Assembly: GCA_963830105.1 (NCBI GenBank)
Contig: CAWHLH010000003.1
Span: 323,931 to 387,930, forward strand
Length of the DNA: 64,000 bases
From: an uncultured Gammaproteobacteria bacterium
GTDB lineage: Bacteria > Pseudomonadota > Gammaproteobacteria > DATFLG01
Reading direction: 5' to 3'
Below, one piece after another: positions 8,101 to 46,901 of this stretch. The translations under genes and the position numbers were made by a program. A model generated the notes under the pieces. That model did no database searches. It was not told the DNA's origin and worked only from the letters and a program-made list of their open reading frames with translations. Position 1 is the stretch's first letter, and every line of letters starts with the position of its first letter.

Positions 8101-8673
8101 GGGGCCGAGCAAAGCGGCCAGATCCAGGAAATCGGCTTCACCCTCTACCGGGAATTGCTGGAGCGCACGGTGAAAGCGTTGAAGGAAGGCCGCGATCCGG
8201 CCCTCGAACAGCCCGTTGAGCACGGCCCGGAGATCGATCTGCGCATCCCCGCACTGATTCCCGATGACTACCTGCCGGACGTGCACACCCGTCTGATACT
8301 CTATAAACGTATTGCCAGCGCCGGCAACGAGGACGAACTGCGTGATCTGCAGGTGGAGATGATCGACCGGTTCGGGCTGCTCCCCCAGCAGACCAAGAAC
8401 CTGTTCCGCACGGCGGAACTGAAACTGCGCTCGGCGCCCCTCGGAATCACCAAGATCGAGGGCGGCGAACGTGGCGGTCGGCTGGTGTTCGCCCCGCACC
8501 CCCATGTGGACCCGGGTGCCGTCATCTCCCTCATCCAGAACCAACCCGAGCGCTACAAACTGGACGGCGCCGACAGGCTGCGCTTTACGGGCGACATGCC
8601 CGAAGCCGAGCAGCGCCTGGACGCTATCGCGACTCTGCTCGCCACGCTGGCCCCCGGAGGGCCCAATCCATGA
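5113..8673 (+). CDS. mfd: Transcription-repair coupling factor Mfd
   Basis: 1186-aa ORF with UvrB-homology N-terminus, RNAP-interacting domain, DEAD/helicase motifs (GDVGFGKTEVAMRAAF, DEEHRFG) and TRG motif. True start may be the internal ATG at ~5176. Confidence 0.95.
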   Translation: MWENTRRASMPARHPHRPRPTMPKPASNLNRDNTARSALNPDVPKARGQQVWGRLYGDSLALVIQAAARRHGGPSLVITPDMQQADRLLGELRFFGAQSDLPILGFPDWETLPYDAFSPYQDIVSERIEALYRLPDLDQGILVVPAATLMQRVAPPSYLRQTALMLDAGDRLDLETMRTRLDAAGYRCVAQVMEHGEFAVRGSLLDLYPMGSSLPYRIDLFDQEVESIRTFDPENQRSLDRVDSIRLLPAREFPLDPAAITRFRQAYRANFEGDPQNSPVYRDVSNGLAPGGIEYYLPLFFDDTATLFDYLPASALILDLPGTHDAAESFWHQTQERFEQRRHNIERPLLPPTRLFLQTEELSAALGPFPRVRLERFEQHEPSADAINYATRALPDLALKARAPRPAAALGQFLDAFPGRVLLVTESTGRRETLQDVLREYGVKPQPVDGWQAFLDGDQPLALTVGPLDQGLWLDEPTIAVITETQLFGERVKQARRRKPSRDPETIIRDLTDLSLGAPVVHEDHGVGRYLGLQKLTVGDIETEFLTIEYAGGDKLYVPVGSLELVSRYSGTSPEGAPLHKLGSEQWQRARRKAAERMRDVAAELLEVYARRAARQGFSCHVHPDEYTVFASTFPFEETPDQQTAIEAVVEDMASPQPMDRVVCGDVGFGKTEVAMRAAFVAAQDGRQVVVLVPTTLLAQQHYQNFRDRFSDWPVRIEVLSRFRSRKTQDAVLKGLAEGAVDIVVGTHKLLQEGVKFKNLGLVIIDEEHRFGVRQKERLKALRAEVDLLTLTATPIPRTLNMSLSGLRDLSIIATPPAHRLPVKTFVSEWDNATVREACLREIKRGGQVYFLHNEVESIERIARSLRELVPEATVEVAHGQMRERELEQVMLDFYHRRFNILVCTTIIESGIDVPSANTIVINRADRLGLAQLHQLRGRVGRSHHRAYAYLLVPSRGAMTPDAVKRLEAIEALEELGSGFTLATHDLEIRGAGELLGAEQSGQIQEIGFTLYRELLERTVKALKEGRDPALEQPVEHGPEIDLRIPALIPDDYLPDVHTRLILYKRIASAGNEDELRDLQVEMIDRFGLLPQQTKNLFRTAELKLRSAPLGITKIEGGERGGRLVFAPHPHVDPGAVISLIQNQPERYKLDGADRLRFTGDMPEAEQRLDAIATLLATLAPGGPNP

Positions 8674-9470
8674 AGCTTACCCGACATCCAAGGCGGCTGC
8701 TGAGCGCCCTGGCCCTGGCCCTGGGAGTCAGCCTGGCCGCGGCGCTGCCCGCACAGGCGGCAAAGGCCAGCCAGACCCAGCAATACGATGTGGAGATCCT
8801 GGTCTTCGCCAACACCAACCCGGACGATCAGGGCGAACAGTGGCCGACAGATCCGGGCGCCCCCGATCTGGGCGCCGCCAGCGAACTCGGGGCGCCGGAC
8901 GGTCCCACTCAGCTGGGTCCGCAGAACTATCGTCTGAGTGCAGACGACGGGGCGCTCAAGCGATCCGGGCGCTACCATCCGATATTGCATCTGGCATGGC
9001 GCCAGACTGCCGGCCCCCTGGACGCCAGCCACGGCGTACACATCCATGGCCCCGGCGCCAGCGACACGGTGGACGGCACCGTCAAGCTGTCCGTGGGCCG
9101 CTATCTGCACCTGGACCTGGATCTGCTGTACCGTCCGGCATCCAATCCCGCCGCCGACCCCGGCCCGACAAGCGCCAACGGGCCCGCCGCCGCGCCCGCA
9201 TCGGGCGAGGCGGGCAGCGACACTGCCGGCGACGGCCAGAGCCCGGTGCCGTTGCCGGCACAGTGGGTGTCCGATCCAGGCGTATTTCGCATGCAGCAGC
9301 ACCGCCGGCTGCGGAGCCGAGAAGTGCAGTATTTCGACCAACCCCACTTCGGCGTACTGGCGCTGGTCACCCCTTACACACCACCCGCGCCAAAGCCGGA
9401 GACGCCTCCGGACAGTGCTGCCGGCAACGCGCCGGACCACGGCACAAGTGCGCCCCAAGGCGGCCAATAG
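8670..9470 (+). CDS. Secreted protein with signal peptide (possibly CsiV-family periplasmic protein)
   Basis: 266 aa. N-terminal signal peptide (MKLTRHPRRLLSALALALGVSLAAALPAQA). Low-complexity Pro/Ala-rich C-terminus. Start overlaps the mfd stop (ATGA). The family assignment is a weak recollection. Confidence 0.5.
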   Translation: MKLTRHPRRLLSALALALGVSLAAALPAQAAKASQTQQYDVEILVFANTNPDDQGEQWPTDPGAPDLGAASELGAPDGPTQLGPQNYRLSADDGALKRSGRYHPILHLAWRQTAGPLDASHGVHIHGPGASDTVDGTVKLSVGRYLHLDLDLLYRPASNPAADPGPTSANGPAAAPASGEAGSDTAGDGQSPVPLPAQWVSDPGVFRMQQHRRLRSREVQYFDQPHFGVLALVTPYTPPAPKPETPPDSAAGNAPDHGTSAPQGGQ

Positions 9471-9536
9471 CAGGCAGCCACCGCCGGAAGCGGAGCAACA
9501 TGCTGCGGGGGGTTGGGATGAATCGGCGGCGCCGAT

Positions 9537-10277
9537 TCAAAGCGTGGCGACGACCTGTTCCAGCAGACGACGGACTTTTTCCATGCCCGCCGACAGGTGG
9601 CGATCGATATCCGCCATGGTGATGGTTCCGTTACTGCGCCCTGCCGCCCAGTTGGCAATCACCGCGCAGGTCCCATAGCAAAGCTCCGCTTCGCGGGCCA
9701 GGGCGGCTTCCGGCATGCCGGTCATGCCCACCATGTCGCAGCCGTCCCGCTCCATGCGATCCACCTCCGCCGCCGTCTCCAGCCGCGGTCCCTGGGTGGC
9801 GCCGTACACGCCGTCCTCAATGGCGCCCAACTCCGCTGCCCGGGACGAGCGCACGAGCGTTGCGCGCAAATCCTGACAGTAGGGCTCGGTGAAATCGATA
9901 TGGGTGACCTGACTGAGATCGCCCTGAAAATAGGTATGCTGGCGCCCAAATGTGTAATCGATGATCTGATGGGGGAAGGCGATCAGCCCGGGCGCCATAT
10001 CGGCGCGGATACCGCCCACCGCCGCCACCGCAACCACCTGTTCGGCGCCGGCCTGCTTCAGGGCCCAGATATTGGCGCGATAGTTGACCTCGTGAGGAGG
10101 AATGGTATGCCCGTAGCCATGGCGGGCGAGGAAAATCACTTCCCGGCCACCCAGCACGCCATGGATAAGCGGCCCCGATGGTTCACCGTAAGGCGTGTGC
10201 ACGACCTCGCGACGCTGAATCTCCAGGGTCTTGAGCTTGGTCAGCCCGGTGCCGCCAATGATCGCCAGTTGCGCCAT
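9537..10277 (-). CDS. mtnP: S-methyl-5'-thioadenosine phosphorylase
   Basis: 246 aa. PNP/MTAP family motifs (AIIGGTGL, EVIFLARHGYGHTIPPHEVNYRANIWALK). Confidence 0.9.
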   Translation of the reverse strand: MAQLAIIGGTGLTKLKTLEIQRREVVHTPYGEPSGPLIHGVLGGREVIFLARHGYGHTIPPHEVNYRANIWALKQAGAEQVVAVAAVGGIRADMAPGLIAFPHQIIDYTFGRQHTYFQGDLSQVTHIDFTEPYCQDLRATLVRSSRAAELGAIEDGVYGATQGPRLETAAEVDRMERDGCDMVGMTGMPEAALAREAELCYGTCAVIANWAAGRSNGTITMADIDRHLSAGMEKVRRLLEQVVATL

Positions 10278-22509: not shown

Positions 22510-22950
22510 CTTCAACCAGGAGCCCGGCATGATAACTCCCCGACGGCAGAGCAAGGTTCTGGTCGTCCCGAATAGAGTCTAGGCGCCAACTCATAGCACG
22601 ATGCCCGGCCGTGACCCGTCGCATGCCGGTGTATTTTACGACGCGGTCATCCAACGCAACTTGAAAGGAACAGAAAGCATGCTTCGTCTGTACGCTGCCG
22701 AACATAGAAGCCGGTTCCTGGTCGTGGTAAGCGATATCTCTCAGCGCCCGCCAAGACTGCAGCAGGGGCGTACACACCGTGCTACCGAGATATACCCCAT
22801 TGCTCATGTCTTCGGCCAGGGGCAAGTGCACTGTTATGTACGATAGCGTACGGACTGTGCGTAATCATGCGACTAGCCTTCTCTCCAACAGTCGGAGTTC
22901 CACGTAATAGATTCAGACTGTCGCTGCACACAATGTAAAGGAGTATTGAC

Positions 22951-23511
22951 ATGTGCAAAATACGAAATCATATCAGCGCACTCATGTTCGCGGCGACCGC
23001 AATCGTCTCAATGAGTGTAATGAATCAGGCAACCGCGGCAACCGCTGCTGATCTGGATAAGGATTCCCAGCAGGCCTTGCAGACGCTTTACAAAGCCGAG
23101 CCGATCGCCGAGAAGCTGTCGCATACAGCCAAGGGTATTCTCATCTTTCCTAATATTGTAAAGGCTGGCCTGGTGTTCGGCGGCAGCTACGGCGAAGGCG
23201 AGTTAATACAGGGATCGAAAGTCGTCGATTATTACAACTCTGTCACGGGATCCTGGGGGCTGCAAATAGGTGCCCAGTCCTACGGATACGCCGTGTTTCT
23301 GATGACGGACAAGGCCGTCAGCTATCTCGAAAAGTCGAAAGGTTGGGAAATTGGCGTGGGTCCCACCGTTGTTGTGGTTAACGAAGGTATCGCGAAAAAC
23401 CTGTCCACATCCTCGTTGAAGGACGATGCCTACGCCTTCGTTTTCAGCCAACAGGGATTGATGGCAGGGGTCAGCATCGAGGGAACCAAAATTTCCCGTA
23501 TCAAGCGGTAA
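22951..23511 (+). CDS. SYLF-domain (Ysc84/DUF500-like, lipid-binding) secreted protein
   Basis: 186 aa. Signal peptide, then SYLF-like core (AKGILIFPNIVKAGLVFGGSYGEGEL...GAQSYGYAVFLMTDKAV). Located in an AT-richer islet. Confidence 0.65.
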   Translation: MCKIRNHISALMFAATAIVSMSVMNQATAATAADLDKDSQQALQTLYKAEPIAEKLSHTAKGILIFPNIVKAGLVFGGSYGEGELIQGSKVVDYYNSVTGSWGLQIGAQSYGYAVFLMTDKAVSYLEKSKGWEIGVGPTVVVVNEGIAKNLSTSSLKDDAYAFVFSQQGLMAGVSIEGTKISRIKR

Positions 23512-27941: not shown

Positions 27942-29180
27942 TCAGCCCCGCGGAGCCTGGGACACCCAGCCAAGATACATGCCGGCAGCGTCTGCGGTAC
28001 CGCGTCCCGGGGAGGTCAGATACGGATCGGCACTGACGCGCTGGACCGGGCGAAATCGTTGTTTGGAGAGCGCGACATAGGCCGGGTGTTCATGATAGTT
28101 GTCGACCGCCGCCGAGTGACAAAAGCGGACCAGCCAGCTGTATCGACACAACGCATCGTCTCTCACTGCTTTGCCTGAATGTACCGCTCGCACGCCAGGA
28201 ATCGTGGTGAGAACACGCCGTCCCTCAGCCATGACTGTTTCAACCGCGCTGTCATCCAGCCCTTCGACATCGAGGGTAACGACATGTTCCACCGGCACCC
28301 AATGTCTGCATTGCTCCAACACCTCGGCTGCGCGGCCCGCCGCACCCCAGAGTCTGAGGCAGCGCTCGGTCTGCTGTTCCACCACCTCCTGTACAGCGCG
28401 CATGGCAGTGGTGTAGCGACCTTTCCCGTTACCCTTGGCGCTCGCCCGCACTTGCTCGAACGCCGCATCCGCAAGTCCAGTAAAATAGTTGATTTTGGCG
28501 ATGCCGTTATCGATCAACCGCCGAACCTGGCTGTTGTTGAGACCAGTGCCCCCATAGACGGCCAGCGGTATTCCCAGCGCTTCGTTGATCTGTTTAAGCC
28601 GCTGCCAATCGAGCTTTGGCTTTGCCTTCGTGCGACCGCGCACAGTCCCGATGGATACGGCCAGCAAGTCGACTCCGGTCCTGTCCACGTAGCCGCGGGC
28701 TTCGGCCACCGATGTATACACAAGCTGACTCGGATCCGGCGGTGCAGCGTCTCCTTCGGCCTCCGGCACATATCCCAGCGTGCCTTCCACGGGTACGCCG
28801 CAACTGCGGGCCATGGCAACCACCTCCCCGGTAAGGGCGATGTCTTCTCCCAACTCGCTATGGGAGGCGTCGACCATGACACCGTTACAACCTGCGTTGA
28901 TGGCGCGCACAGCGGACTGAAGATCACGGCCATGGTGCAAATGGATCGCCACCGGGACAGAGGCACGCTGTGCCGCGCACTCCACGGCCGCGACCAAAAG
29001 GTCGAACTCCAGGGACTCGAAATGCGGCTCCGCCAGACTCAGGATCACCGGCGCCCGACAGCGCTCCGCCGCCGCCATAACCCCCTGCAGGAACTCCAGA
29101 TTGACCAGTTCGAATGCCCCCACCGCGTAACTGTGCCGGTAGGCGTGGTCAACCATGTCCTTCATGTTTACCAGTGGCAT
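27942..29180 (-). CDS. Class II (ketose-bisphosphate) aldolase-like domain fused to a C-terminal Dabb (stress-responsive alpha/beta-barrel) domain
   Basis: 412 aa. N-terminal ~285 aa resemble FbaA/GatY-type class II aldolase (AVGAFELVNLEFLQGVMAAAE..., HLHHG, VMVDAS, LAVSIGTVRG, LAVYGGTGL), with some metal-ligand His positions substituted. C-terminal ~100 aa Dabb-like (VEHVVTLDVEGLDDSAVETVMAEGRRVLTTIPGVRAVHSGKAV...YSWLVRFCHSAAVDNYHEHPAY). Divergent from cbbR. Confidence 0.7.
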   Translation of the reverse strand: MPLVNMKDMVDHAYRHSYAVGAFELVNLEFLQGVMAAAERCRAPVILSLAEPHFESLEFDLLVAAVECAAQRASVPVAIHLHHGRDLQSAVRAINAGCNGVMVDASHSELGEDIALTGEVVAMARSCGVPVEGTLGYVPEAEGDAAPPDPSQLVYTSVAEARGYVDRTGVDLLAVSIGTVRGRTKAKPKLDWQRLKQINEALGIPLAVYGGTGLNNSQVRRLIDNGIAKINYFTGLADAAFEQVRASAKGNGKGRYTTAMRAVQEVVEQQTERCLRLWGAAGRAAEVLEQCRHWVPVEHVVTLDVEGLDDSAVETVMAEGRRVLTTIPGVRAVHSGKAVRDDALCRYSWLVRFCHSAAVDNYHEHPAYVALSKQRFRPVQRVSADPYLTSPGRGTADAAGMYLGWVSQAPRG

Positions 29181-29411: not shown

Positions 29412-30326
29412 ATGCCCATTCGACGCGCGACCCTGCATCAGCTCCGGATCTTCGATGCCTTGGCCCAGCACATGAGCATCACCCGCACTGCGCAGATGCT
29501 CCACCTGACACCGCCGGCCGTTTCCATTCAGGTCAAACAGTTAGCCGAGGCGGCAGGTCAGCCACTGGTGGAACAGGTAGGGAAAAAGCTCTATCTCACG
29601 GAAGCGGGCGAAGCCGTCGCTTCGGCCTGCCGCGACGTCTCGGCGCGCATGGAACGGCTTGTCCAGGAGCTGGCTGCGATCCAGGGGCTCGAGAAAGGCA
29701 CCCTCAGCGTTTCCATTCTCACCACCGCCAAGTACTTTGTGCCGCAACTGCTGGGCCAACTGAGCGCGCAGCATCCCGGCATCGAGGTCTCACTTTTCGT
29801 TGGCAACCGCAAGGCGATTCTCGATCGGCTCGCCCACAATCAGGATGATCTGTACATCCTCGGTCAGCCTCCCGAGAACCTGGGCGTCGTCACCCTGCCC
29901 TTCGCGCCGAATCCCCTGGTCGCTATTGCCCACCCGGAACACCCGTTGGCCGGAAAGAAGAATATTCCGCCGCAGCGCTTGGCCGAAGAGCCGTTCATTG
30001 CACGGGAACAGGGCTCGGGTACCCGCCTGGGGTGCGAGGCCTTCTTCCGGCGCCATGACACTACACCACGGGTGCGAATGGAGCTTGGCAGCAACGAAGC
30101 CATCAAACAGACGGTGGCGGGGCGACTGGGCATTTCCATCATCGCAAAGATCACTGTTGAAGCGGAGATCGCCCGAGGCAACCTCGCCATTCTGGACGTT
30201 GAAGGCCTACCCCTCGAACGCCAGTGGCACCTGGTCCATCCCGAGCACAAAATCCTGGCGCCGGCGGCGCTAGCGTTCAAGGACTTCCTTCTGTCCCAGC
30301 ACATCGGCGAGGACGCTCAAGCATAG
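29412..30326 (+). CDS. cbbR: LysR-family transcriptional regulator, probable RuBisCO operon regulator CbbR
   Basis: 304 aa. N-terminal LysR HTH (LHQLRIFDALAQHMSITRTAQMLHLTPPAVSIQVKQLAE). Bounds the carboxysome supraoperon and is divergent from a Calvin-cycle-type aldolase gene. Confidence 0.8.
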   Translation: MPIRRATLHQLRIFDALAQHMSITRTAQMLHLTPPAVSIQVKQLAEAAGQPLVEQVGKKLYLTEAGEAVASACRDVSARMERLVQELAAIQGLEKGTLSVSILTTAKYFVPQLLGQLSAQHPGIEVSLFVGNRKAILDRLAHNQDDLYILGQPPENLGVVTLPFAPNPLVAIAHPEHPLAGKKNIPPQRLAEEPFIAREQGSGTRLGCEAFFRRHDTTPRVRMELGSNEAIKQTVAGRLGISIIAKITVEAEIARGNLAILDVEGLPLERQWHLVHPEHKILAPAALAFKDFLLSQHIGEDAQA

Positions 30327-30887: not shown

Positions 30888-31502
30888 TCACGTACCCGAT
30901 GGGTTGTTGACCGCCGCGATGGCCGCGGCCGCAGCCTCGTCGACGTCCGCCTCACGGCCGGACAGAGTCAGGCGCCCATAGGCACCGACGGCACGCACGT
31001 CGATGAGGGTGATGTTGGCGGCCTTCTCCGCCTGGTTGGCGGCATATACGATGTAGCCGGCCGGTTCGGTTTCCAGGATGAACATGCTCTGTTCGGGCAG
31101 GATCATCGAACCGCGACGGTTCTGCCGGTTGATCAGCACCGTGTGATCCGGCGTCATGCCCCGAATCACCTCCTGCCACGCGATCTGGCAAGGCCGTCGA
31201 TTGCGCACCTGGGCGCCCAGATGCTGGAGTATGACTCCGCCCGCCTCCTGCACGTCGCTCTGATCGCGATGGTGAATGACCATCGAACCGTACGCCCGCT
31301 CAACCACCTGCTGCGCCAGATTCACCCGCGTGGCCTTGAGCGCAATATCGGTCAGCCGATGGATCGCCATACCGGGCGACACCTCCACCCACAGACAAGC
31401 GTCGCCCGGTACGGGCAGGAAACCCTGCGACACCGTGGCCATGTACTCGGCAAGCTGCGGCTGCAACGAGTCGATATAGACGTATGTTCGAAGCTCTATC
31501 AT
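30888..31502 (-). CDS. csoS1D: Carboxysome shell protein CsoS1D (tandem BMC-domain pseudohexamer)
   Basis: ATG at 31502 with GGAAGAG RBS. ~204 aa with two BMC-like halves ([40 protein letters not shown]... and ...[48 protein letters not shown]), closely resembling CsoS1D. Confidence 0.8.
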
Positions 31503-31592: not shown

Positions 31593-31919
31593 TCAGCCGC
31601 TGAATTTCACCAACCGGGTGATCTGAATATCGGAGATGAATACCACACCGGAATGTTCGTTATAGAAAGGCGCAAGACCCTCCAGGATCGGCTTGACCAA
31701 CTCTTCCGGGACTGCCGCAATGATCATGACCAGCACGTCGTCCTCATTGAACATGAGGTGGCCTTCGTGAAATCCGTGACTGCCCTTGCCCGAAAGATTA
31801 TTGATGATCGTATAACCCTTGACCCCCGCCCGGTCCAGGATGTCGGTGGCAAACCCCTGGTGTTCGCCACCCAGAATGATTTCAAGCTTCTTGAGCGGGC
31901 TGAAATTCAGATTGTGCAT
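31593..31919 (-). CDS. P-II-like signal-transduction family protein (SbtB/DAB-associated type)
   Basis: 108 aa. AGGAGA RBS. PII-fold length and sequence ([12 protein letters not shown]..., T-loop region [10 protein letters not shown]). Sits directly downstream of the dabA remnant, as in DAB operons. Confidence 0.65.
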
Positions 31920-34900
31920 GATTCGGTCTTCTCCTCGACGAAAGCCGGTTCGGGGCGCCCCACATGCGGGGCTTGGTCCACTGACCTTCCTCGTACACCT
32001 TCACGTCCCCCTGTTCCGGGTCGATGATCACCAGCCGGATCCAACCGTTGCGGACCAGCGCTTTCACGGCGGGCACACTCTCCACCGCCCGCCAGGCATG
32101 CTCAAACGGCGCCTCGATCACCGTGATCAGACGCAGCGGCTCATGGTAGGGGAGTCCACCGTCGAGAACGGTCTGCGCCGGCAGGCCGGTGCGCAGGTCG
32201 CTCAGATTCCCCGTCATCACACCGAAGCGACCGGCCACGTTGTGGTAGACCTTGCTGCCGCTGCCGAAACGCTCGTTGTCAACGGTGGAAAAGTAGTGCT
32301 CCATGTTGATCCATTGGCCGACCACCAACGGACCGGTAAGTATGTTCTCCAGCAACCTGCGCTTGGGATCGACGCGATAGTCGTAGGAATGCAGAAACGC
32401 ACGGCCCTCCAATGACATCGACTGGGTCAGGGCTCGACGGCCGATGACGAAGTACGCGTTGCCCGCCAGGCCCCATTCCGGACGCACCTGAGACCAGTCC
32501 ATGGCGTTGCGCTGGGCGTCCTTGAATGCTTCGCCCGGCTCCGGCGAACCTGCGTCCATCTGCAGAGCTGGCATGCGCTCCTGTGTGCAAAGACGGGACG
32601 CTGCCGTAAAACCCTTGCGCAGCCGATCCATGTACAGCACGTGGGACGGGGGCATCCTGTCCAGGTCGAACAGTTGCAGGCCGTCGGTCGTGGTGTCGTG
32701 GAGGGCGGGTACGAACGATGCATCGTCGGGGATATCAATGCCCTGTTCGCGCAGCCTGTGGCGCACCTCCGCCTTGTTCGCCATCTGCGCAAGAGCCCGG
32801 GCGTTGACCAGTCCGTGGTTACCTCCGCAGGCGCCGCAATCGAGTGCCGATTCGTAGGGATTGTTCTCGGAGGTGCTGCCATGCCCGACCAACAGGATGA
32901 ATCGGGAGAAGCCCGCCGTCAAACCTATGGAACGCAGCGCCTGTCCGACGAAACCGACCTGTTCGTCGAGGCTGAAACCCAGTCGCGCAAGCCGTTCCAT
33001 CTGTAGCTGGGCAAAGGACTGATCGATGCGATAGACCCGTCGCAGGCGCTCGATGAATGCCCGCTCTGCCGCTCGTCCACGTCGAGCGATTTCGCCAGCG
33101 CCGGGGCCCTGGCCGATTGCCCAGGGCCGATTCGCGAAATTCGCGGACGAGTGCATCGTTGATCCCTTCGGCCTCAAGGCCGAATTCTTGCTCCACCGCC
33201 TTGACGATCACGGCCCTTTGGACGGCGCGCACGATCGAATCCGCCTGCTCCCGGGTGAGCTTGTCGAGCAGCAGACGGGTAAGCGGCTTGCTCCATGCAG
33301 ACGCTGACGCCAGCGGTTGTAGCGGGCGGGATCAGGTCTTGCCGACCAGATCCAGACCAAACAACAAACCAATGGCCTCGACGGTGACAAACGGAGTGAG
33401 CACGGATTCCTTGAGCTCGTGCAAGACTTCTCCAGAGCGGTAAGGCGCCGGCATCCGCTTTACCTCCGAGATGGCCATTTCCAGAACGAGATTCTTAGGC
33501 GTCAGCAATACCGGGCAGAGATGGATCTCACTGCCCTTGCCCAATTCCATGAAGCTCACCGGCACGCCGAAAAAGCCCGCGATACCGTAGGTCTGGTAAT
33601 CGCCCACATTCTCCAGATGCCGACGGATTCTCTCGGAGCGGGTATCGATGCAAAACAGGGCCTGCGCGAACGGGCGCTTCTCCCGCGCAACGGCTGGCTG
33701 GTAACTGACACCATTGAGCAGGCGGTGCATCGCGCTCTGTTCCAGGGCCCGCAGCCAGATCATGCCTTCGCCTTGCTCGAATTCGCGAAGCGTGTCCAAT
33801 AGCCTGCGCAGCCCCTCCGTGGACAGATGCTGAAGCGCCTCGGGTTGACCCGCCTTGCGCGCCAGTTCCGCAAGCCGCCGCCCCTGGCATTCGGCCTCAT
33901 CAGAGCCGCTTCTGCGCTACATACTCGGAAAATAGCCGTTGAATTGTCCGAGGCCGACCGCCTGCCAGTGTCTGCTGACCCCGAGCGGCCAGGGCCGGCG
34001 ACGCCGAACCGCCATGCAGTTCGTGGCGAAGGTAGGTTTCCCTGGGCCGTTGCTCGATAGCTGCCATCACACTGGCTGCGCTGGCGGCGATTCCCTTGCG
34101 TCCCCGCTCGCTCGACGGCGCGACAGCAAGGGTCAGTCGCACTGCCATCAGGTCACCAGGTCCACCGGATAGCGCTCCGCCCGATGATAGTGCTTGGCGT
34201 TGGCCCGCCAGCGGATGAACCCCGCCCAACCATGCAGGCGTGCAAGCTCCCGTGCGAAGTAAGTCACCCACTGATCCTCGGGCACTCCGAGCATCTGCAT
34301 CGGCTGGGAGATGACCGCCTCGGGGCTATCTTCCTTACCGGCGACACGATTGATGTGCAGGCCCCGCAGATACAGACGGCCGTTGCGACTGGCGACATCG
34401 CGCCACGCTGCAAAGAAGCCCTGATTGCGCCCGGGCATACCCCATACGGACTGACCTTCGTCGAAGAAATCCAGGCAACTCTTGATCACCAGCTCGTCTA
34501 GCTCGGAGCCGATTTCAGTGCCATAAAGCGCATAACCGCTTCGTATACCGGGCGGGGCCCAACAACTAGCAGCGCAGCCGATCGGCCAGCGCCTCGCCGT
34601 CGAGCTGCGACGACACGTCCGGGCGGCCGTTCAGGGCGCTGTGTCATCGGGGATCTGCGCCAACGTATTGGCTTGAACGACGGGTAGTCCATCCCTGTCA
34701 GCAAGACTGACAACCAGGTGCGCAAGTCCACCTCGGGCAGCGCCTCCCGGTCCTCCATAAAGCGATTTACGGTGGCCACCAGCTCCGCCTGATCGACCTT
34801 CCCCTGGACCAGGTAACGCTGATAATCGGCCCGTTCAGGAAGCCCTTCGCATGGAACATCCGCCTGCCTTCCTCAACCGCCTCGGAGAATGGCGGATGCT

Positions 34901-34983
34901 CCAAACCGTGAAGCGGATTGTGGTGAATGAACGACCGCATGGGCCAGAAGTACGGAATGGGTTCTCCGGCCAAGTAGATCATG
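31882..34983 (-). pseudogene. dabA: DabA (DUF2309/PF10070, DAB CO2-uptake complex subunit A), fragmented by multiple frameshifts/stop
   Basis: DabA homology spread over at least 5 ORFs in three frames: 34767..35597 (N-terminus IYLAGEPIPYFWPMRSFIHHNPLHGLEHPPF), 34498..34779, 34148..34489, 33332..33799 (ALFCIDTRSE) and 31882..33177 ([22 protein letters not shown]). Frames switch in the order 2, 0, 1, 1 (separated by an in-frame stop), 0. Confidence 0.75.
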
Positions 34984-34999
34984 GCGCAGAACCGACTCT

Positions 35000-35773
35000 T
35001 TGGCCGAGTGGGAGCGTCATACCAGATCCCCCGTGAGCAGGAACCCGCTGACGAGCAGAATGACCAGCACCGCGGTGTAAGCCCAGGTGAAGCCACACTG
35101 AGATCCGGTGCTTCGCTACCGTTGGCCGGACCCACGATCAGTCCTTGAAGCAGGCGCGTTCCCGCCCAGCTCCAGAGCAGCCATACGCCCGCCACGGTCA
35201 GCGCAGCCAACGGCATCGTCGGCGTTATAGCAACGACGGTTGCCAGCATGGCGAAAAAGGTGGGGAACGACGGAGCGGCCACGATCGCCAGTACCACGCC
35301 CACCAGCACGCCGGACATCCGCGGGAGCGTCTGTGCCAGGCCGCCGTACAGACCCGTATAGGCGGCACCGAAACGCTCTTCCAGACGAGCGCCAAGCAGG
35401 GCGAGCAGCATCAGCGGCAGACTGAACCCGAGTGCGTACAAGCGCACCCGGGAAAGGTCCGTGTGAGCAAAGAGCGCAACCCACAGAGCGCCCACGCCGA
35501 GGTGGCCAGGTAGCCGATCCACTGACCCACTTCCCGCAGCCCAATGGCCCGAAAGGCATACAGGGCCGAGGTAAACAAAGCCAGGAACACACACCAATGG
35601 GGAATCGGTCGATTGACCGCATGCACCAGGCTCAAACCGAGTTGGGGCCAGACCAACAGCAGTACGACGCGCAGCGTGGCATTGCGTACCCGACTGAAAA
35701 GCACATTAAAGCCCATGCTCAACGGGAACAACGGCAGAAACAAGCCACCAAACCAGTAGGTCAACGTACTCAT
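35000..35773 (-). pseudogene. Frameshifted gene for a polytopic membrane protein between dabB and dabA
   Basis: Hydrophobic ORF 35411..35773 (MSTLTYWFGGLFLPLFPL...) continues in another frame in the 5' part of ORF 34767..35597 (...LPLMLLALLGARLEE...VLVGVVLAIVAAPSFPTFFAMLATVVAITPTMPLAALTVAGVWLLWSW...). Together ~240 aa, interrupted by a frame change near 35410-35600. Confidence 0.45.
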
Positions 35774-35774: not shown

Positions 35775-37460
35775 TCAGACCCATCCCAACCAGACGTTCA
35801 GTCGTGTTGCCAGCGCCAACAGCGCCCGGGCGAAGCGGGTAAAGACGTCGGTCAGATAGAACTCCCGAGAAACCAGTGCATAGAAGGCCAGCCACAGTCG
35901 ACCGTGATGCTCGCCTTGGCGGCTTCCGTTCTGTTCCGAATAGTAGGTCAGCACCCAACCCGCCACGATCAACACCGTAACCAGGCCCACCAGGATGTCG
36001 AAGCGCAGCACGCCGATATTGGCCGCCGCATAGATCTGCTGACGGAACGCCTCGTCCGGATAGAGGAACAGATCGAAGGCGTGGCTGATGAGGGTGTAAC
36101 CGAGCACCACGATCGTGAAGGAAAGGATGCTCAGCGTCACCAGTCGCCAGAGGTTTCCGGCCTGCATACGATAGGTGGCGAAGATCAACTGGGCCCCGGT
36201 GACCCAGCCGAAAAACAACAGCACCACGGCGCCCTGTTCCTGGAAATAGTCCTGGCCGACCAGTGAATGGGCCACTATGAGTATGGTCACGGGCACCGCC
36301 AGGGTGATCGCCGCCATCAGCACCCAGGGCCGGCGAACCCTTGCGGGACGTCTCTCCACCACAAAGGTGTAGAGTTCGTCCTTCGGCAACCCGTCGTCCT
36401 TGCGGGCCGCACCGATCGCGCCGCCGGCGCCCAGAAAGAGCGTCCCTTTGAACAAGCCATGGGAAATGAGGTGAAAAATCGCGAGAGAAAATGCCCCCAC
36501 TCCGCATTCCATGATCATGAAGCCCATTTGCCCCATGGTCGAGTAGCCGAGCGACTTCTTGATGTCGTTTTGGGTAAGCATGAGGGTCGACCCGATGAGA
36601 GCGGTGACAAGACCAACGATGAACACCCAAGGCAGCACACCTTCCGTATGGGCGAACACGGGTGCGAAGCGGTTGATCAGAAATCCCCCCGCATTGACGA
36701 TCCCGGCATGCATCAAGGCCGACACGGGGGTGGGCCCGGCCATGGTGTAGGGAAGCCAGGTATGGAGCAGAAACTGCGCCGAGCGCGCAAAGGCGGCCAC
36801 CGCTACCAGACTGGCGACCAAGCCCGTCAATGGCAGTCCGAAAAAGCTGTAGATAACCGGGCCGTGGGCGATGTGAACGAATATCTCAGGCAAGGACCAT
36901 GTACCGAAGGCGTGATAAAGCAGACCTGCGGCGAGCACCAGAGGCAGGTCCCCGAAGCGATAGGTGATAAGCGTCCAGAAGGCATATCGGTGTGCGGCGT
37001 GACTGCGGGTATCCTGCCCCAGCAGAAAGTAGAGCAGGACCCCGATCAAATGCCAGGCGATCAACAGGGTGATCAGGTCCCCGGCGCAAACCATCACCAA
37101 CAGCGTCGCGGTCATGATGTCCAGCAGCACGAAGAAACGTCCATAACCGGCTTCCTCGGCCATGTAGCGCACGGAATAGATGTGCACGATCAGGCTTATG
37201 CCGGCGATAACCGTCGCCATCAGGGAGCTCAGGGGATCGAACAGGAATATGCCCCACGAACCCGCCAGGGAAATCTGACCCGAAGCCCCGTGGGCGACCG
37301 CCGTTGCCAGAACCACGACCGCAAGAGAAAAGGTGACGGCCGCGACAGTAACACTCACACGGGCGACCCGGCGCCCGAGCCGGGCGGACAACAGCTGTAC
37401 CAGCACAGCCGACACCAGGGGCAAAAGCGCGACCATTACGACGAGCTTTTCCATGGTCAT
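35775..37460 (-). CDS. dabB: DabB (NuoL/Mrp-antiporter-like, PF00361) subunit of the DAB CO2-uptake complex
   Basis: 561 aa polytopic membrane protein with complex-I antiporter-like subunit (NuoL/MnhA) features. Encoded directly after mcdB and before the dabA remnant within the cso supraoperon. Confidence 0.8.
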   Translation of the reverse strand: MTMEKLVVMVALLPLVSAVLVQLLSARLGRRVARVSVTVAAVTFSLAVVVLATAVAHGASGQISLAGSWGIFLFDPLSSLMATVIAGISLIVHIYSVRYMAEEAGYGRFFVLLDIMTATLLVMVCAGDLITLLIAWHLIGVLLYFLLGQDTRSHAAHRYAFWTLITYRFGDLPLVLAAGLLYHAFGTWSLPEIFVHIAHGPVIYSFFGLPLTGLVASLVAVAAFARSAQFLLHTWLPYTMAGPTPVSALMHAGIVNAGGFLINRFAPVFAHTEGVLPWVFIVGLVTALIGSTLMLTQNDIKKSLGYSTMGQMGFMIMECGVGAFSLAIFHLISHGLFKGTLFLGAGGAIGAARKDDGLPKDELYTFVVERRPARVRRPWVLMAAITLAVPVTILIVAHSLVGQDYFQEQGAVVLLFFGWVTGAQLIFATYRMQAGNLWRLVTLSILSFTIVVLGYTLISHAFDLFLYPDEAFRQQIYAAANIGVLRFDILVGLVTVLIVAGWVLTYYSEQNGSRQGEHHGRLWLAFYALVSREFYLTDVFTRFARALLALATRLNVWLGWV

Positions 37461-40174: not shown

Positions 40175-40189
40175 CTTCGTGTCTCCTGC

Positions 40190-40510
40190 TTACGTTGTTT
40201 CCCGTTCCAGGGCCCTCTTGCCCCGCCTGTTTCTGTCACTGTCGCGGCCGCCCGGCGTTGCGGTTTCGACCTCCCAGTAATCGATAATGCCGCCGATGGT
40301 GAGATCGGTGAGAACCCCGAAGTCACCGCAGGCGTATCGCGCGGCCGAGCCGCTGACGGTAAACACCCAGTTGCCCTCGCACGCACCCACTGGATCGACG
40401 GCCACATGCCGCCCGCCCTTTGAGTCTCGCAAGACCCGCAGGCTGGTGTGTTGCAGGCCCTGTATCCTGCGAGTGCAGACCAGCGGCGCTTCGACTTGGA
40501 GAATATCCAT
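40190..40510 (-). CDS. csoS4B: Carboxysome vertex (pentamer) protein CsoS4B (EutN/CcmL family)
   Basis: ATG at 40510 (MDILQVEAPLVCTRRIQGLQHTSLRVLRD...). BMC-P fold pattern. C-terminal extent uncertain. Confidence 0.8.
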   Translation of the reverse strand: MDILQVEAPLVCTRRIQGLQHTSLRVLRDSKGGRHVAVDPVGACEGNWVFTVSGSAARYACGDFGVLTDLTIGGIIDYWEVETATPGGRDSDRNRRGKRALERETT

Positions 40511-40519
40511 CGATCTGTC

Positions 40520-40777
40520 TCAGCCCTGCGCCTCTTCCGGGGGCCAGTGGTCAATTATTCCGACGATGGTCAAATCGCTCGGATATTCCTTGCTGCCTGC
40601 CGCTTCACGGGCGGCCGAACTGCCCACGCAGACCACCCAGTCGCCGGGAATGCAGCCCACAGCATCCACCGCCACCAGCATCGCACTGCCGTCACGCACC
40701 ACCTGCATGTGCCTGTGCTCCAGGCCAGGAATGCGATTGGTGGCAACCAGCGGCCGCTCCACCTGACAGATCTTCAT
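40520..40777 (-). CDS. csoS4A: Carboxysome vertex (pentamer) protein CsoS4A (EutN/CcmL family)
   Basis: Internal ATG at 40777 overlapping the csoSCA stop (TGATG). 85 aa (MKICQVERPLVATNRIPGLEHRHMQVVRDGSAMLVAVDAVGC...). Confidence 0.85.
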   Translation of the reverse strand: MKICQVERPLVATNRIPGLEHRHMQVVRDGSAMLVAVDAVGCIPGDWVVCVGSSAAREAAGSKEYPSDLTIVGIIDHWPPEEAQG

Positions 40778-42297
40778 CAGTGCGCTTCCCCTGTGGCATC
40801 GCCGTTGACAGAACAACCCAGCACTTCAATGCCGCCATGGGACGCGTGGTCGCGGACCAGCATCAGCGTGTACAGCAGACCGCCGTTGACAAGATCCGCA
40901 TAGCGTGCAGCGATGGCCTGCGCCACCCGCTGGCAGCGGCCTACCGCCCGTTCGCGCGCGCCCGGCACATGCCCCTGGTAGTCGTATCGCACTACCACCG
41001 GGATGGGCAGACCGTGGGCCACATTCAACCGGGAGAAGATCTTCACACCGACATCCAGGTCGGGAGCGGCCTCCTCGACTGTGTCGAGATAAGCGAAATA
41101 GGTGAGGTTGCGAAGCTGCACTTCCTCGAAACCCTTGCCCGCGCCGATGAAACGCTCGGCGTGCCCGATGTCCTGGTAGCGCCCGCCGTGATGGGCGCCC
41201 ACGTACTCGATCTGGGACAGGTTGTTTTCCAGCAGGCGTGAAATCAGCCGCCGCATACCTGCGGGCATATCGGGCGCTGCCTCGCGCATCCGCGCCTCGA
41301 TGCATTCCTTTGCCTGGTATTGCGACAACCGCTGGGTCGCCTCGTACAGTTCGTGCGCATCGACATACTGGTCCAGAGCGATGGCGCCATCGCCGTCCGC
41401 CACGTGCACGCGAATGGCATCGGTATCGGTGTCCAGTCCGATCAGCATGAGATCTATGGAAGCGCCGCAGCAGTGCGTGTTCTGCACCGCCTGCTGGAAG
41501 CTGCACAGCCGTTCCAGCCCGGCACGCGCCGCCGCCCCCGCGTCGGAGCCGTGGGCCGCACAGCCTTCACGGGCCGGGTCACCCGAACTGTAGTGGTAAA
41601 CCACCGCCTTCAGGTAGCGGGTGGGCGCATCGGCCGTGTTGGGGCGACCCTCGCGAAACCGCATCAGTTCGGTTTCGGTCCACTTTTCAAGACTGTCGTC
41701 GATGTCGAACAGCGCGCCCGCATAGGACTTGCGTCGTACCGCGCGGTAGGGCAGCCGGAGCACAAACCGTATGACGTGGGCCAGCCGGCCGTCGGCGCAG
41801 GGGGAGACATCCAGGGTATGGAAACCGCATTCCTGCAGAAATGCATCGAAGGCGTCTTCGTCGTGCGAGCCCAACGGGTCGTTGGCGAAGAAGTCATCGC
41901 AAAAGCGGCGATAAGTCTCGAATACACACCAGGCGAACAGGCGGCGCATGTCCAACTGCTCCACCCAGGCGTCGGCCAGAATATGCGCTGGCAGCTCAAA
42001 GCCCAGGCGTTCACGCGCCATGCGCTGCGCGCGAACCTCGAAATGCTCTTCGTGCTGCAGAGCGGAAATGCGCTTGAGGGTCGGCACGATACCGTCGAAG
42101 GCGGACTTGACCCGCTGTTCGTAGTCGAACAGTCGTGCGTTCTCCCCGACCCGCACCAGCGGCTGGCGAATCCGGTGCCCCGCCCCATCGGCGCGCAGCG
42201 CCGGCGGGCGCCCGCCAGCCACCGCCCCCGGACGCCGCCGAGGGGCGGCCGGCTGGGGCGCGGGCCTTTCAGGGGATGATTGCGGTAGTTGCAACAT
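40777..42297 (-). CDS. csoSCA: Carboxysome shell carbonic anhydrase CsoSCA (CsoS3)
   Basis: 506 aa. Characteristic CsoSCA sequence (FETYRRFCDDFF...HTLDVSPCADGRL...HCCGASIDLMLIGLDTDTD...). Canonical position between csoS2 and csoS4A. Confidence 0.9.
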   Translation of the reverse strand: MLQLPQSSPERPAPQPAAPRRRPGAVAGGRPPALRADGAGHRIRQPLVRVGENARLFDYEQRVKSAFDGIVPTLKRISALQHEEHFEVRAQRMARERLGFELPAHILADAWVEQLDMRRLFAWCVFETYRRFCDDFFANDPLGSHDEDAFDAFLQECGFHTLDVSPCADGRLAHVIRFVLRLPYRAVRRKSYAGALFDIDDSLEKWTETELMRFREGRPNTADAPTRYLKAVVYHYSSGDPAREGCAAHGSDAGAAARAGLERLCSFQQAVQNTHCCGASIDLMLIGLDTDTDAIRVHVADGDGAIALDQYVDAHELYEATQRLSQYQAKECIEARMREAAPDMPAGMRRLISRLLENNLSQIEYVGAHHGGRYQDIGHAERFIGAGKGFEEVQLRNLTYFAYLDTVEEAAPDLDVGVKIFSRLNVAHGLPIPVVVRYDYQGHVPGARERAVGRCQRVAQAIAARYADLVNGGLLYTLMLVRDHASHGGIEVLGCSVNGDATGEAH

Positions 42298-42433
42298 GCC
42301 TGTATCCGGAATCTCGCCAATCCAACGTTAACCGGTTCAGCCCCGGGCTCCACCGGAATAGGTCACCAGTGCGCCGCGGTCGGTATTGCCGCTACCGCCC
42401 GTGACTTTGCTCACGGGCTCCGGCACCTGGTCG

Positions 42434-44691
42434 TTACGCTCCCGCGTTGGAGAACGCGGGCATGGCGCTCACGGGACCGCCGCGGCGCGTCGGGTTGCGC
42501 CCCATGGACGAGGTCCCTTCGGTTCCCGTCACCCGGTCGCCGCGCTCCCAGTCGTCACCGGTAATCTTCTGACCCGCATCCATGCCTTCTCCGGTGATGC
42601 GCGACTTGATCCGCCCGTTGATGTCGTCGGAGGTAGGTGACGACGCGACGTCCTCTGTCAAGGCTGGGCGAGTGCCATGTCCGAAGCGTGCCTCCTCGGT
42701 CCCCGTGACCTTGCCGGCGGCCATTCCGAACGGTCCGGTAATCTGCCCCTGCTCATAGCTCGAACCGGTGACCCCGCCCTTGCGCGCCTCGACCTGCGCG
42801 GCCTGCGAGGGCGCCGTGACACTGAACCGCCCCCAGGGGGTTTCACCCAGCGGCTGAGGAAAATCGGGACTGCCGGGCTCTGCCGGAGTGGCAGGACAGG
42901 CGGCGGCGAACTGATCGGCACCCACGTACGGGGTCCCGCTGACGGGCTCGCAGGCGCCCTTGTCTGCACCGGTCAACGTTCCGCCGATTCCCGGCTGCTG
43001 GCCGGTCATGACGGAACCTGGCGTGCTGCGCTGCGCCCGGGTACGTGCCGCGGCCGATTGAGCCTGCTCCGGCTCGCAGTAGCTGCGGTATTGTTCCGCC
43101 CCGGCATAGGGCGTGCCGGTGATCGCCTTGCAGGTGCCGGGCTCGTCCCCCGTGACCTTGCCGGAGCGTCCAGTGAGCGTACCGCTGACGGCCTTGCCCT
43201 TCTGGGTCCGCGACACACCGACCTTGAAGTCGTCGGGCTCGGGCGTGGCGGCGCAGAACTTGCTGTACTGCTCCTTGCCGATGTAGTCATCGCCGGTGAT
43301 GTTGCGGCAGCTGCCGGGCTCGTCGCCGGTCACCCGTTCGCTGCGCCCTACCTGGGTGCCGGTCATGGAACCACCCCGCAAGGTCTGACTTCTGCCGACT
43401 TTGGACGGTACTTTGCCGTTGCCCGCCTGCATGTACTGGGTCCCCGTCAATTCACGCCCGGCACCTGCTTCGTCGCCGGTCACCCGGCTGGAGCGGCCCA
43501 CGTTGTTACCCGTTACCGTCTTATCCGTACGGGTTTGGGCACTGCTGATCTTCATCGGGCCGGGCTCGTTGGGAGTCCCACAGAAGGCTTCGGACTGATC
43601 GGCACCCACATACTGGGACCCGGTCACGCGCTTGCAGGTGCCCGGCTCGTCCCCGGTCACACTTCGGCTGCGGCCGACCTCGTTGCCGGTGACGCGGTTG
43701 CCGTGTCCCGTGGGACTGACACCGACTTTGCGCACCGACTTGCCGGGCTCGGTCTGGCAGAACTGCCGGAATATGTCGGCACCCAGATACTCGGTGCCGG
43801 TCACGTTCCGGCAGGTGCTGGCCTCGTCACCCGTGGTCCGGACACTGCGCCCGACCTGGGTGCCGGTCACGGTCTGGCCGTAGGCGGTTTCACCGGCACC
43901 GACCTTCCAGGGCGCATCCTGCGCAGCGCCTGGGCCGCTGCCCCCTTCCGGAGTCCGACGAGCGCGTTTGCGGCCACAGGGCTCGGACTTCTTCTGGCCG
44001 GATCCACCCTTTTGACTGCGCTGGGCGCGCAGGGCACGGGCGAGTTCACGGCTGGATAAGTTCGGGTTGGCGGCCCGCGCGGTCTGCGCCTGGCTCGGGC
44101 CGTTGCCCCGCAGTCCCGCTTTGCCCCGCGCGGACATGGCATGACGCCGAGCCAGGGCCGCAGCCCGCCCGACGCTCATGGAGGCGGCCCTGGTGATATT
44201 GCGGTTCACGGTGTGCTTCTTGGCCAAAGAACGGGACGGCGTGGAAGCCGCACCGCCACCGCTGTACTGGCCATGACGCTGTTCAGAACCATGATCGGCA
44301 TTCTGTTCCGGACGCTGATCGGCACGTCCCCGCTCACCCTTGCAGCCACAACCACAGCCGGATGTTTCCCGACCGGGTGCCGCACTCCCCGACTGCACCG
44401 CTCCAGCCGAATCCGCACGGGTGCGGTCCGGGGTGCTCATCCCGGCTTTCCCGCGGCTGGACATGGCTCTGCGCCGCGCCCGCGAGGCAGCTCGCCCTGG
44501 CGAGCTCACGGCTCCGGCGCCGAGAGCGGCCCAGGGGCACGGGATACAGCAGGCGCCGTCGTCTTGGGCTTGCTGCCCGAGGCACTCGTTGCGGCACCGA
44601 GACCGGCCTTGCCCTTGACGGACATGGCGCGGCGCCGGGCGCGTGATGCCTCACGACCACTGGAGTTGGGAGTGTTTGGAGTCTGTGCCAT
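42434..44691 (-). CDS. csoS2: Carboxysome scaffold protein CsoS2, annotated across an N-terminal frame break near 44506-44509
   Basis: ORF 42434..44509 (691 aa) has two further N-type repeats (GRAASRARRRAMSSRGKAG, ARRHAMSARGKAG), a weaker fourth, and many M-region repeats (VTG(D/N)E-x-G-x-C-x-x-(V/I)TG(T/S)-x-Y). The first N-repeat (GREASRARRRAMSVKGKAG) and a canonical N-terminus lie in ORF 44506..44691, offset by one base, with stop and GTG overlapping (GTGA). Confidence 0.85.
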
Positions 44692-44733
44692 CTCTTACCC
44701 CGTCGCGTCGATGTTTACCTTCCGTTACCGGGT

Positions 44734-45078
44734 TCAGCCGCGTCCTTCGAAGACGACGAACGCCAGACCCTGGCTCTGGGTGTAGTTGTCGTAACCGATC
44801 AGGCGAACGTGGTGATCCGGGTACGCGCGGTGGCAAGCCTCCAGTTCGTTGATCACGTTGGACAGGTTGGTCTCACCGAAGAAGGGCAGCTTCCACATGG
44901 TCCAGTAGTGGTTGGTGGCCCTGGAGGGATGCTCGTGCTCGATGGCCGGCGTCCAGCCCTGGGCGAGCAGGTAGACGATCTGCTCGTGTATCTCATCCTG
45001 GGTCATGGGCGGCAGGAAGCCGAAGGTCTCAAGGGTGTGGGCGGTCTGGTAGTCACCCATCTCGTACATGCTTGGCAT
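44734..45078 (-). CDS. cbbS: RuBisCO small subunit (form IA)
   Basis: 114 aa (MPSMYEMGDYQTAHTLETFGFLPPMTQDEI...YWTMWKLPFFGET...). Classic CbbS. Confidence 0.95.
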   Translation of the reverse strand: MPSMYEMGDYQTAHTLETFGFLPPMTQDEIHEQIVYLLAQGWTPAIEHEHPSRATNHYWTMWKLPFFGETNLSNVINELEACHRAYPDHHVRLIGYDNYTQSQGLAFVVFEGRG

Positions 45079-45133
45079 GGTCGTATTCCTCGCTTCAGTT
45101 CAGTCTCGGGTTCGCAGGGAGCGTGCCGTGCGA

Positions 45134-46546
45134 TCAGGCGACGTCCAGCTTGTCCACGGTTTCGAACTCGAACTTGATTTCTTTCCAGGTTTCCATCGCC
45201 ATGGCGAGCTCGGGGCTGTTGGCGGCGGCCTCGGTGAGGACGTCGCGCGCCTCCTTCTCCAGTTCGCGGCCCTGGTTGCGTGCCTTCACGCAGGCCTCGA
45301 GCGCCACCCGGTTGGCCGCCGCGCCGGCCGCGTTGCCCCACGGATGACCCTGGGTGCCGCCGCCGAACTGCAGGCAGGAGTCGTCGCCGAAGATGGTAAC
45401 CAGTGCGGGCATGTGCCAGACGTGGATACCGCCGGAGGCCACCGGGAACACGCCAGGCATGGAGCCCCAGTCCTGATCGAAGAACACGCCGCGCGAGCGG
45501 TCCTCCGGCACGAAGGATTCGCGCAGTTGGTCAACGAAGCCCAGAGTGGAGGCGCGGTCGCCTTCGAGCTTGCCCACCACCGTGCCGGAGTGCAGGTGGT
45601 CGCCGCCGGACAGGCGCAGGCACTTGGCCAGCACGCGGAAGTGAATACCGTGCTTGGGATGGCGGTCGATCACCGCGTGCATGGCACGGTGGATGTGCAG
45701 CAGCATGCTGTTCTTGCGGCACCACTTGGCCAGACTGGTGTTGGCCGTGAAGCCGCCGGTCAGAAAGTCGTGCATGATGATCGGCATGCCCAGTTCCTTG
45801 GCGAACTCGGCGCGCTCGTACATCTGCTCGGCATCCGGGGCGGTGACGTTCAGGTAATGACCCTTGCGTTCCCCGGTCTCGGCCTGGGCCTTGAGCACGG
45901 CCTCGGCCACGAACTCGAACCGGTTCTGCCAGCGCATGAACGGCTGGGAGTTGACGTTCTCGTCGTCCTTGGTCAGATCCAGACCGCCGCGCAGGCATTC
46001 GTACACGGCGCGGCCGTAGTTCTTGGCCGACAGGCCCAGCTTGGGCTTGATGGTGCAGCCCAGCAGCGGACGGCCGTACTTGTTGAGCCTGTCGCGCTCC
46101 ACCTGAATACCGTTCGGTGGCCCCAGGCAGGTCTTGATGTAGGCGATGGGGAAACGGATGTCCTCCAGGCGCAGGTGCTTGAGTGCCTTGAAACCGAACA
46201 CGTTACCGACCAGCGAGGTCAGCACGTTGACGATGGAGCCCTCCTCGAACAGGTCGATTGGATAGGCGACGAAGGCATAGAAGGACTCGGAATCCCCCGG
46301 CACGTCTTCAATGCGGTAGGCGCGACCCTTGTAGTACTCGAGATCGGTCAGCAGCTCGGACCACACGGTGCTCCAGGTACCGGTGGAAGACTCCGCGGCG
46401 ACGGCGGCGGCGACCTCTTCACGGGGCACGCCCGGCTGGCCGGTGCACTTGAAGCAGGCCAGCAGGTCCGTATCAAGCGGCACATAGTCCGGGGTCCAGT
46501 ACATCTCGCGGTACTCTTTCACGCCCGCTTGGTAATTCGCGCTCAT
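45134..46546 (-). CDS. cbbL: RuBisCO large subunit (form IA, carboxysomal)
   Basis: 470 aa with all hallmark motifs ([23 protein letters not shown], GGLDFTKDDE-like, active-site K in [13 protein letters not shown]..., YxKTFxGPxxG-like). AGGAGG RBS. Confidence 0.97.
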
Positions 46547-46653
46547 TGAGGAGTCCTCCTGTTTGCGATACTGAGTGTTAATCGATGGCTCCGCTTTGCG
46601 GCTGCGCAGCCCAAGCCTCCAGAAATTGGCGGCAGTTTATGGGGAAGGAATGA

Positions 46654-46703
46654 TTAATTACAGTTTAACTTTCTTACGTTCGCGTTTATGGATCGTTTAA
46701 TCC
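46654..46703 (-). promoter_or_regulatory. ~50-bp AT-rich conserved element, copy A (upstream of cbbL)
   Basis: ATTAATTACAGTTTAACTTTCTTACGTTCGCGTTTATGGATCGTTTAATCC, about 110 bp upstream of the cbbL start. Confidence 0.5.
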
Positions 46704-46753
46704 TTGGACGCATCGACCCGTCGTTGGAGCGGAGTGTACGGAGCAGCTGCGGA

Positions 46754-46803: not shown

Positions 46804-46901
46804 TCCACAGGGCAGTGGACCGGCGAGGCGCCGTTCGGCCACGGGTGAGCAAGCGGCCGTATGCGACGCAATAAACGAGAAATTCCCCACTGCGCCGGTG
46901 C

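Follow-up and report, generated by a model that had tools for sequence, protein, structure and literature searches.

The csoS2 gene in the 64,000-nucleotide stretch of DNA analysed here (the window) is split near its 5' end into two overlapping reading frames, and we conclude, with a probability of roughly 0.9, that this break arose when a single base was wrongly left out of the assembly consensus. One C would have been dropped from a CCC run of the coding strand at 44528-44529, and the real csoS2 would be a single 785-codon gene, with its ATG at 44691, encoding four N-terminal repeats, the M repeats and a shell-binding C-terminal peptide. An assembly error is favoured because the gene is intact in an independent assembly (L148), because orthologues carry the first repeat in frame, because many other deletions are clustered in the same locus, and because a related contig (L149) possesses the bases that the window lacks.

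Layout of csoS2 in the window

The 61-aa and 691-aa ORFs (Table 1) are almost certainly pieces of one csoS2, and the GTGA overlap between them, formed by the TGA of the former (44508-44506) and the GTG of the latter (44509-44507), would be incidental. The complete translation of the 61-aa ORF (44691..44506, minus strand) is MAQTPNTPNSSGREASRARRRAMSVKGKAGLGAATSASGSKPKTTAPAVSRAPGPLSAPEP followed by the stop, in which residues 1-54 (to ~44530) are authentic CsoS2 and the last seven or so (LSAPEP and the stop) are an out-of-frame read-through past the missing base. These 54 residues are 100% identical to the intact CsoS2 of L148 and 87% identical to that of L003 (tblastn E = 7e-9), and for this reason the likeness of the short ORF to CsoS2 is not a matter of chance. 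The frame of the 691-aa ORF is offset by -1 (equivalently, +2) relative to the 61-aa ORF. Both elements of the original prediction, namely that the short ORF is a CsoS2 N-terminus with the first N-repeat and that the remaining 691 aa, with the second N-repeat, follow at a one-base offset across a GTGA overlap, were confirmed.

The closest full-length homologue, P0003 (90% identity), reads ...AVSRASVPAAGAGAVSSPGRAAS..., and it is matched by the window as ...AVSRAPGP in frame 1 and as ...AALGAGAVSSPGRAAS in frame 3, so that the frame switch falls within GTGCCCCTGGGCCGC, at ~44527-44540. The missing single base was placed at 44522-44531 both by a MAFFT alignment of the DNA with L001 and by a frameshift-aware protein-to-DNA alignment (a purpose-written program, run for csoS2 with five orthologues).

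Table 1. Positions of csoS2, its fragments and other features in the window.
Feature	Position	Strand	Remarks
csoS2, extent after repair	42337..44691	minus	785 aa once three missing bases are repaired
5' fragment ORF, 61 aa	44506..44691	minus	starts MAQTPNTPNSSGREASRARRRAMSVKGKAG, ends APEP and stop
N-repeat 1, GREASRARRRAMSVKGKAG	44602..44658	minus	putative Rubisco-binding-type motif
Missing-base site	44528..44529 (44527/8 in one listing)	minus	window GGGCCGCT (CC), L148 GGGCCCGCT (CCC)
Main fragment ORF, 691 aa	42434..44509	minus	GTG start, begins MSSPGRAASRARRRAMSSRGKAG, premature TAA
N-repeat 2, GRAASRARRRAMSSRGKAG	44441..44497	minus	first element of the 691-aa ORF
Second csoS2 break	42440..42448	minus	window TCCAACGCGGGAGCG, L148 TCCCACGCGGAGAAGCG
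CsoS2 C-terminal peptide, RNDQVPEPVSKVTGGSGNTDRGALVTYSGGARG and stop (also quoted ...PEPVSKVTGGSGNTDRGALVTYSGGARG and stop)	42337..42438	minus	in another frame; consensus of 35 homologues
csoSCA start, compensated indel pair	42261..42291	minus	extra C at 42291, missing T at 42261
Dense single-base indel patch, dabA with its upstream 252-aa neighbour	33067..35487	minus	~19 events, nearly all deletions
prfB (RF2), classical programmed +1 frameshift	54562-55665, site ~55588	minus	SD-like AGGGGG, CTT TGA C
cbbL	45134..46546		
cbbS	44734..45078		flanks csoS2
csoSCA	40777..42297		flanks csoS2 on the other side
dabB	35775..37460		intact
P-II gene	31593..31919		
CsoS1D gene	30888..31502		
LysR gene	29412..30326	plus	
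Class II FBP aldolase gene	27942..29180		fused to Dabb domain
Ysc84-domain ORF	22939..23508		match only to profile positions 2-86 of 127, at the C-terminal end of the ORF

A second break lies at the 3' end of the gene, where a pair of A bases is absent (42440-42441) close to a C>A substitution at 42448. Because of this break, the 691-aa ORF runs into its premature TAA and has the C-terminus ...SAMPAFSNAGA, and the conserved C-terminal peptide ...VTYSGGARG, which is in frame in L148, is left out of frame in the window.

The identity of the gene is clear from several features. With the conceptually fused CsoS2 as the query, 3212 CsoS2 homologues were found, and PF12288.14 (CsoS2_M) is on record for all of the best 120, which were listed, and for P0001, the 668-aa protein called in the source genome itself, whose sequence equals that of residues 24-691 in the window ORF (100% identity). 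The repaired protein contains three full copies of the N-type repeat (at residues 12, 66 and 175; scored by the pattern G/S-R-x-x-S/A-x-A-R-R-x-A-x-S-x-x-G-K) and a degenerate fourth at residue 215. These repeats, recognized here as a sequence motif, presumably bind Rubisco, as we take from the literature on CsoS2 N-peptides. The M region of the repaired protein has 20 V/I/L/M-T/S-G motifs and five Cys pairs (294/312, 353/371, 462/480, 521/539 and 581/599), and the cso operon, on the minus strand, has the order cbbL, cbbS, csoS2, csoSCA and csoS4A/B, followed by three csoS1 copies. In its position between cbbS and csoSCA, the PF12288 domain, the four N-type repeats, the VTG and Cys-pair M repeats and the C-terminal peptide, the gene agrees with the CsoS2 family, the protein being 75-90% identical to its orthologues. 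It differs only in that, as assembled, it is spread over three frames, and after three bases are restored there is no biological difference.

The independent assembly and the orthologues

The independent assembly L148 (GCA_049581805.1, contig JBAUSR010000093.1) was found by an exact look-up of the CbbL of the window and has the gene order sdhCDAB, sdhE, cbbL, cbbS and csoS2 in common with it. In blastn, L148 and the window (42225-52546) are 99.93% identical over 10,326 nt, with two substitutions and five single-base gaps. Its csoS2 is one ATG-started 785-aa ORF (7856..10213) with 99.9% DNA identity to the window gene, one of the five gaps being the extra C that closes the N-terminal frame, and its CsoS2 holds repeat 1, ...AVSRAPGPALGAGAVSSPGRAAS..., and the C-terminal peptide in a single frame. 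At all four differing indel sites the L148 version is in frame and orthologue-like, whereas the window version is broken or aberrant. The T/C difference at 42932 is synonymous. The same population is also present in the short-read runs SRR28003197 and ERR11523667, whose Logan contigs are 99.9% identical to the window at 31072-32203.

L148 may stem from another sample, and the difference could then be natural variation. On such an account the one-base deletion would be real and recent, and CsoS2 would be made without repeat 1 from the GTG at 44509 or the ATG at 44440, or not at all, csoS2 and dabA being decaying pseudogenes in an organism that is losing its CO2-concentrating mechanism (CCM) while keeping Rubisco. 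A restart codon is indeed available downstream of the break. However, each of these genes is intact in L148 as far as the two assemblies overlap, and a protein made from the restart codon would have two defects, since the frame of the C-terminal peptide, which is required for attachment to the shell, is lost as well. Furthermore, five indel bases against two substitutions in the shared 10.3 kb is the reverse of what natural variation produces, and for this reason an artefact is favoured over a real mutation. Together with the character of the other indels described below, these points make a real deletion quite improbable.

The orthologues lead to the same result. The genome set comprised 84 loci (from a scan of GTDB species representatives and exact look-ups), 77 of them complete, and the metagenome set comprised 63 loci, 48 of them complete. 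Repeat 1 is in frame and free of stops in all of the ~125 complete csoS2 loci (77/77 from genomes and 48/48 from metagenomes), and the two-frame layout was found in none of them (0/77 and 0/48). Among the surveyed loci, csoS2 is otherwise broken only at the C-termini of L005 (shifted at ~6200-6373) and L053 (~5836-5844), both of which are Microflora Danica (MFD) long-read MAGs. In the JGI metagenomes, an exact-pattern scan for the break region gave no match, and a protein-based scan gave no relative closer than 86%.

Of the 120 best homologues in the database, about 30% have their start called at the 'MSxRGKAG' of repeat 2; entries starting at an internal Met include P0009, P0011, P0017, P0019, P0022, P0026 and P0035. 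A recurrent or conserved N-terminal frameshift was considered and rejected, as the reading frame of L002 (P0009), L004 (P0017) and L148 (a 624-aa call) extends upstream without interruption through repeat 1 to an ATG. To judge from the sequences, the repeat-2 starts in the database are start choices of the gene callers and not breaks.

The one-base indel regarded from the outset as the most likely cause is thus borne out, one C being missing relative to the 99.93%-identical assembly, in which the gene is a single 785-aa ORF; comparison with the csoS2 of relatives, suggested at the same time, effectively yielded in L148 a frame continuous from 44691. The other proposal, that translation starts at the downstream GTG and CsoS2 is truly shorter, finds no support, repeat 1 being in frame in every complete locus surveyed.

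Clustered indels in the CCM locus

The original prediction was silent on the choice between sequencing error and real mutation, on the second break of csoS2, and on the approximately two dozen indels of the locus. Downstream of csoS2 and csoSCA, an extended CCM locus (27942-40825) contains csoS4A/B, three csoS1 copies, bacterioferritin-like, PCD-like and ParA/McdA-like genes, a small basic McdB-like gene, dabB, the 252-aa gene and dabA, and further on the genes for P-II, CsoS1D, NUDIX and LysR and for a class II FBP aldolase fused to a Dabb domain.

At the start of csoSCA, the compensated indel pair turns MLNYRNHPLKGPAPQP into MLQLPQSSPERPAPQP; the ORF remains open, and residues 3-11 read QLPQSSPER in the window instead of the conserved NYRNHPLKG. 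A dense patch is that of dabA (DUF2309, ~1040 aa in relatives), which is split into at least five ORF fragments while the adjoining dabB is intact. Frameshift-aware alignment against the proteins of L003 and L004 identified 13 events of one base each in dabA (12 deletions and one insertion, from 35001 to 33067), and the same kind of alignment found two deletions, at 35487 and 35089, in the upstream gene of 252 aa. Comparison with the contig L149 (~93% identity) brought to light three more deletions at 33427-33462, which together leave the frame unchanged, and showed the event near 35487 to be an insertion/deletion pair. Wherever a deletion was predicted in the window, L149 possesses the 'missing' base, with deletions of its own elsewhere. 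In total, the locus has ~24 single-base events between 33067 and 44528, of which ~20 are deletions. Many of them are in G/C runs of three or more, and several neighbouring events are outside homopolymers altogether.

The frameshift-aware alignments revealed no indel events in cbbL, cbbS, csoS4A/B, bfr, the PCD, McdA-like and McdB-like genes or dabB, and each of the three csoS1 copies gave a single full-length match. Mostly full-length Pfam matches were obtained for the 20 ORFs scanned from 5.1 to 29.3 kb, including that of the 1189-aa Mfd; the exceptions are Ysc84, whose match breaks off at profile position 86 of 127, and Glyco_hydro_3, whose match covers 16-298 of 316. A uniformly error-prone assembly was rejected on the basis of these matches, and the errors are therefore patchy. 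The confinement of the indels to three patches is unlike uniform random error and calls for a further assumption, such as a local drop in coverage, the collapse of strains or a failure of polishing.

The part of the window at ~22000-32000, in which the Ysc84-domain ORF lies, has a G+C content of 0.57-0.61, compared with 0.63-0.68 elsewhere, and weak codon-usage scores; this stretch may have a different origin or a lower consensus quality. Three regions suspected from GC3 and codon usage to be split genes (260-2264, 49276-51811 and 53021-55596) were rejected as such, being separate normal genes: DsrE-like, TusA-like and SQR-like genes in the first (named by eye from the translations), sdhCDA in the second (from the Pfam annotation of L148, 99.9% identical) and lysS and prfB in the third (by eye).

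CCWGG (Dcm-type) motifs lie a few to ~12 bases from both csoS2 breaks (CCTGG and CCAGG, at 44533-44537 and 42424-42428, minus strand). Methylation-linked basecalling error at CCWGG was considered as a cause and is unproven, most of the dabA events being without the motif.

The clustering of the breaks in CCM genes (csoS2, the csoSCA start, dabA and its neighbour), while the housekeeping genes of 5.1-29.3 kb look intact, is what gene decay could produce. If all of the indels were real, the population would be losing its CCM, with a csoS2 broken near either terminus and a dabA frameshifted many times over but with the Form IA Rubisco, shell and carbonic anhydrase kept, L148 being an intact sister sub-population. 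We consider this very improbable. The scored events are all of a single base and biased to deletions; no multi-base deletions were seen against L148 or in the frameshift-aware alignments, and no frame-corrected stops or nonsense substitutions were noticed, neither observation coming from a systematic search. Every 'mutation' would moreover be disruptive in an otherwise conserved gene. The corrected DabA, with an identity to its orthologues of 0.75-0.77, is no more divergent than its neighbours (0.74-0.84). Related Nanopore contigs, finally, have similar breaks at other positions.

These sibling long-read contigs belong to the MFD and ERZ250395xx sets. In L003, cbbL is split into 342 + 148 aa (8139-9552), and in L149 (contig_56933) dabB is shattered at 2700-5100 while dabA is nearly whole. 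The nearest genomes are MFD long-read MAGs, such as MFD02923.bin.2.11 and MFD01721.bin.1.106, and the relatives with the provenance pattern of P0001 (NCBI+ENA) are Nanopore-only MFD MAGs. The source assembly, whose origin and technology we infer, is most likely a Nanopore-only MAG with local patches of raw-read-like consensus. Nanopore-only metagenome assemblies (Flye + Medaka) are known to retain residual indel errors, often in homopolymers (PMC12313526; PMC9262707). The events in the window resemble the errors of Nanopore-only assemblies (the MFD MAG catalogue) in being of a single base, deletion-biased, in many cases situated in short G/C runs, and patchy, in splitting conserved genes, and in their absence from an independent assembly, with sibling MAGs hit at other positions. 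The likeness is limited in that the literature stresses homopolymers of more than six bases, whereas the csoS2 run has only three, and in that the technology of the window assembly is itself deduced.

Frameshifting alternatives and implications

The two csoS2 frames might also be joined by programmed -1 frameshifting or transcriptional slippage, the 61-aa peptide being a regulated by-product, and the direction of the shift, the short C/G runs at the site and the programmed frameshifting reported for csoS2 of Halothiobacillus neapolitanus are compatible with this. In that organism, csoS2 (CsoS2A/CsoS2B) reportedly undergoes a programmed -1 frameshift in the M region, at a slippery sequence with a downstream structure, yielding a truncated isoform. 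The gene family and the shift direction are the same, but the present break separates N-repeat 1 from N-repeat 2, is not conserved, and lacks both a heptamer and a significant structure. No X_XXY_YYZ heptamer occurs in the zero frame from 44691 to 44480, the overlap zone included, and the downstream RNA fold is unremarkable: in a pseudoknot-free model, the minimum free energy (MFE) of the 116 nt from the break is -63 kcal/mol, shuffled sequences have a mean of -57.9 (z = -1.38), and 18 of 200 shuffles fold as well. A real programmed site in the same window, that of prfB (AGGGGGTATCTTTGAC at 55588), looks quite different. As the layout is also missing from all of the ~125 orthologous loci and the L148 frame is continuous, programmed frameshifting or slippage is extremely improbable. 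We agree in this with the original prediction, which held programmed frameshifting to be less likely and had seen, by eye, no obvious slippery-sequence or pseudoknot features.

That the window is correct and L148 carries the errors is scarcely conceivable, for although either assembly could in principle err at each differing site, AVSRAPGPALGAGAVSS in L148 has the same length as AVSRASVPAAGAGAVSS in P0003, its SHAEKRND matches SHADKRND, MLNYRNHPLKGPAPQP is common to L148, L001, L010 and others, and chance errors would not restore three conserved proteins.

With a consensus error as the preferred reading, findings of split genes, pseudogenes or frameshifts in the poor-consensus patches of the window (33.0-35.5 kb, 42.26-42.45 kb and 44.53 kb) are to be discounted. 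For the family as a whole, CsoS2 entries in the databases are often N-terminally truncated for technical reasons, namely frameshift errors and the choice of start, and a systematic start error of the gene callers undercounts the Rubisco-binding repeats. In short, the break is almost certainly no biological feature, and the CsoS2 of this organism is in all likelihood an ordinary protein of full length.
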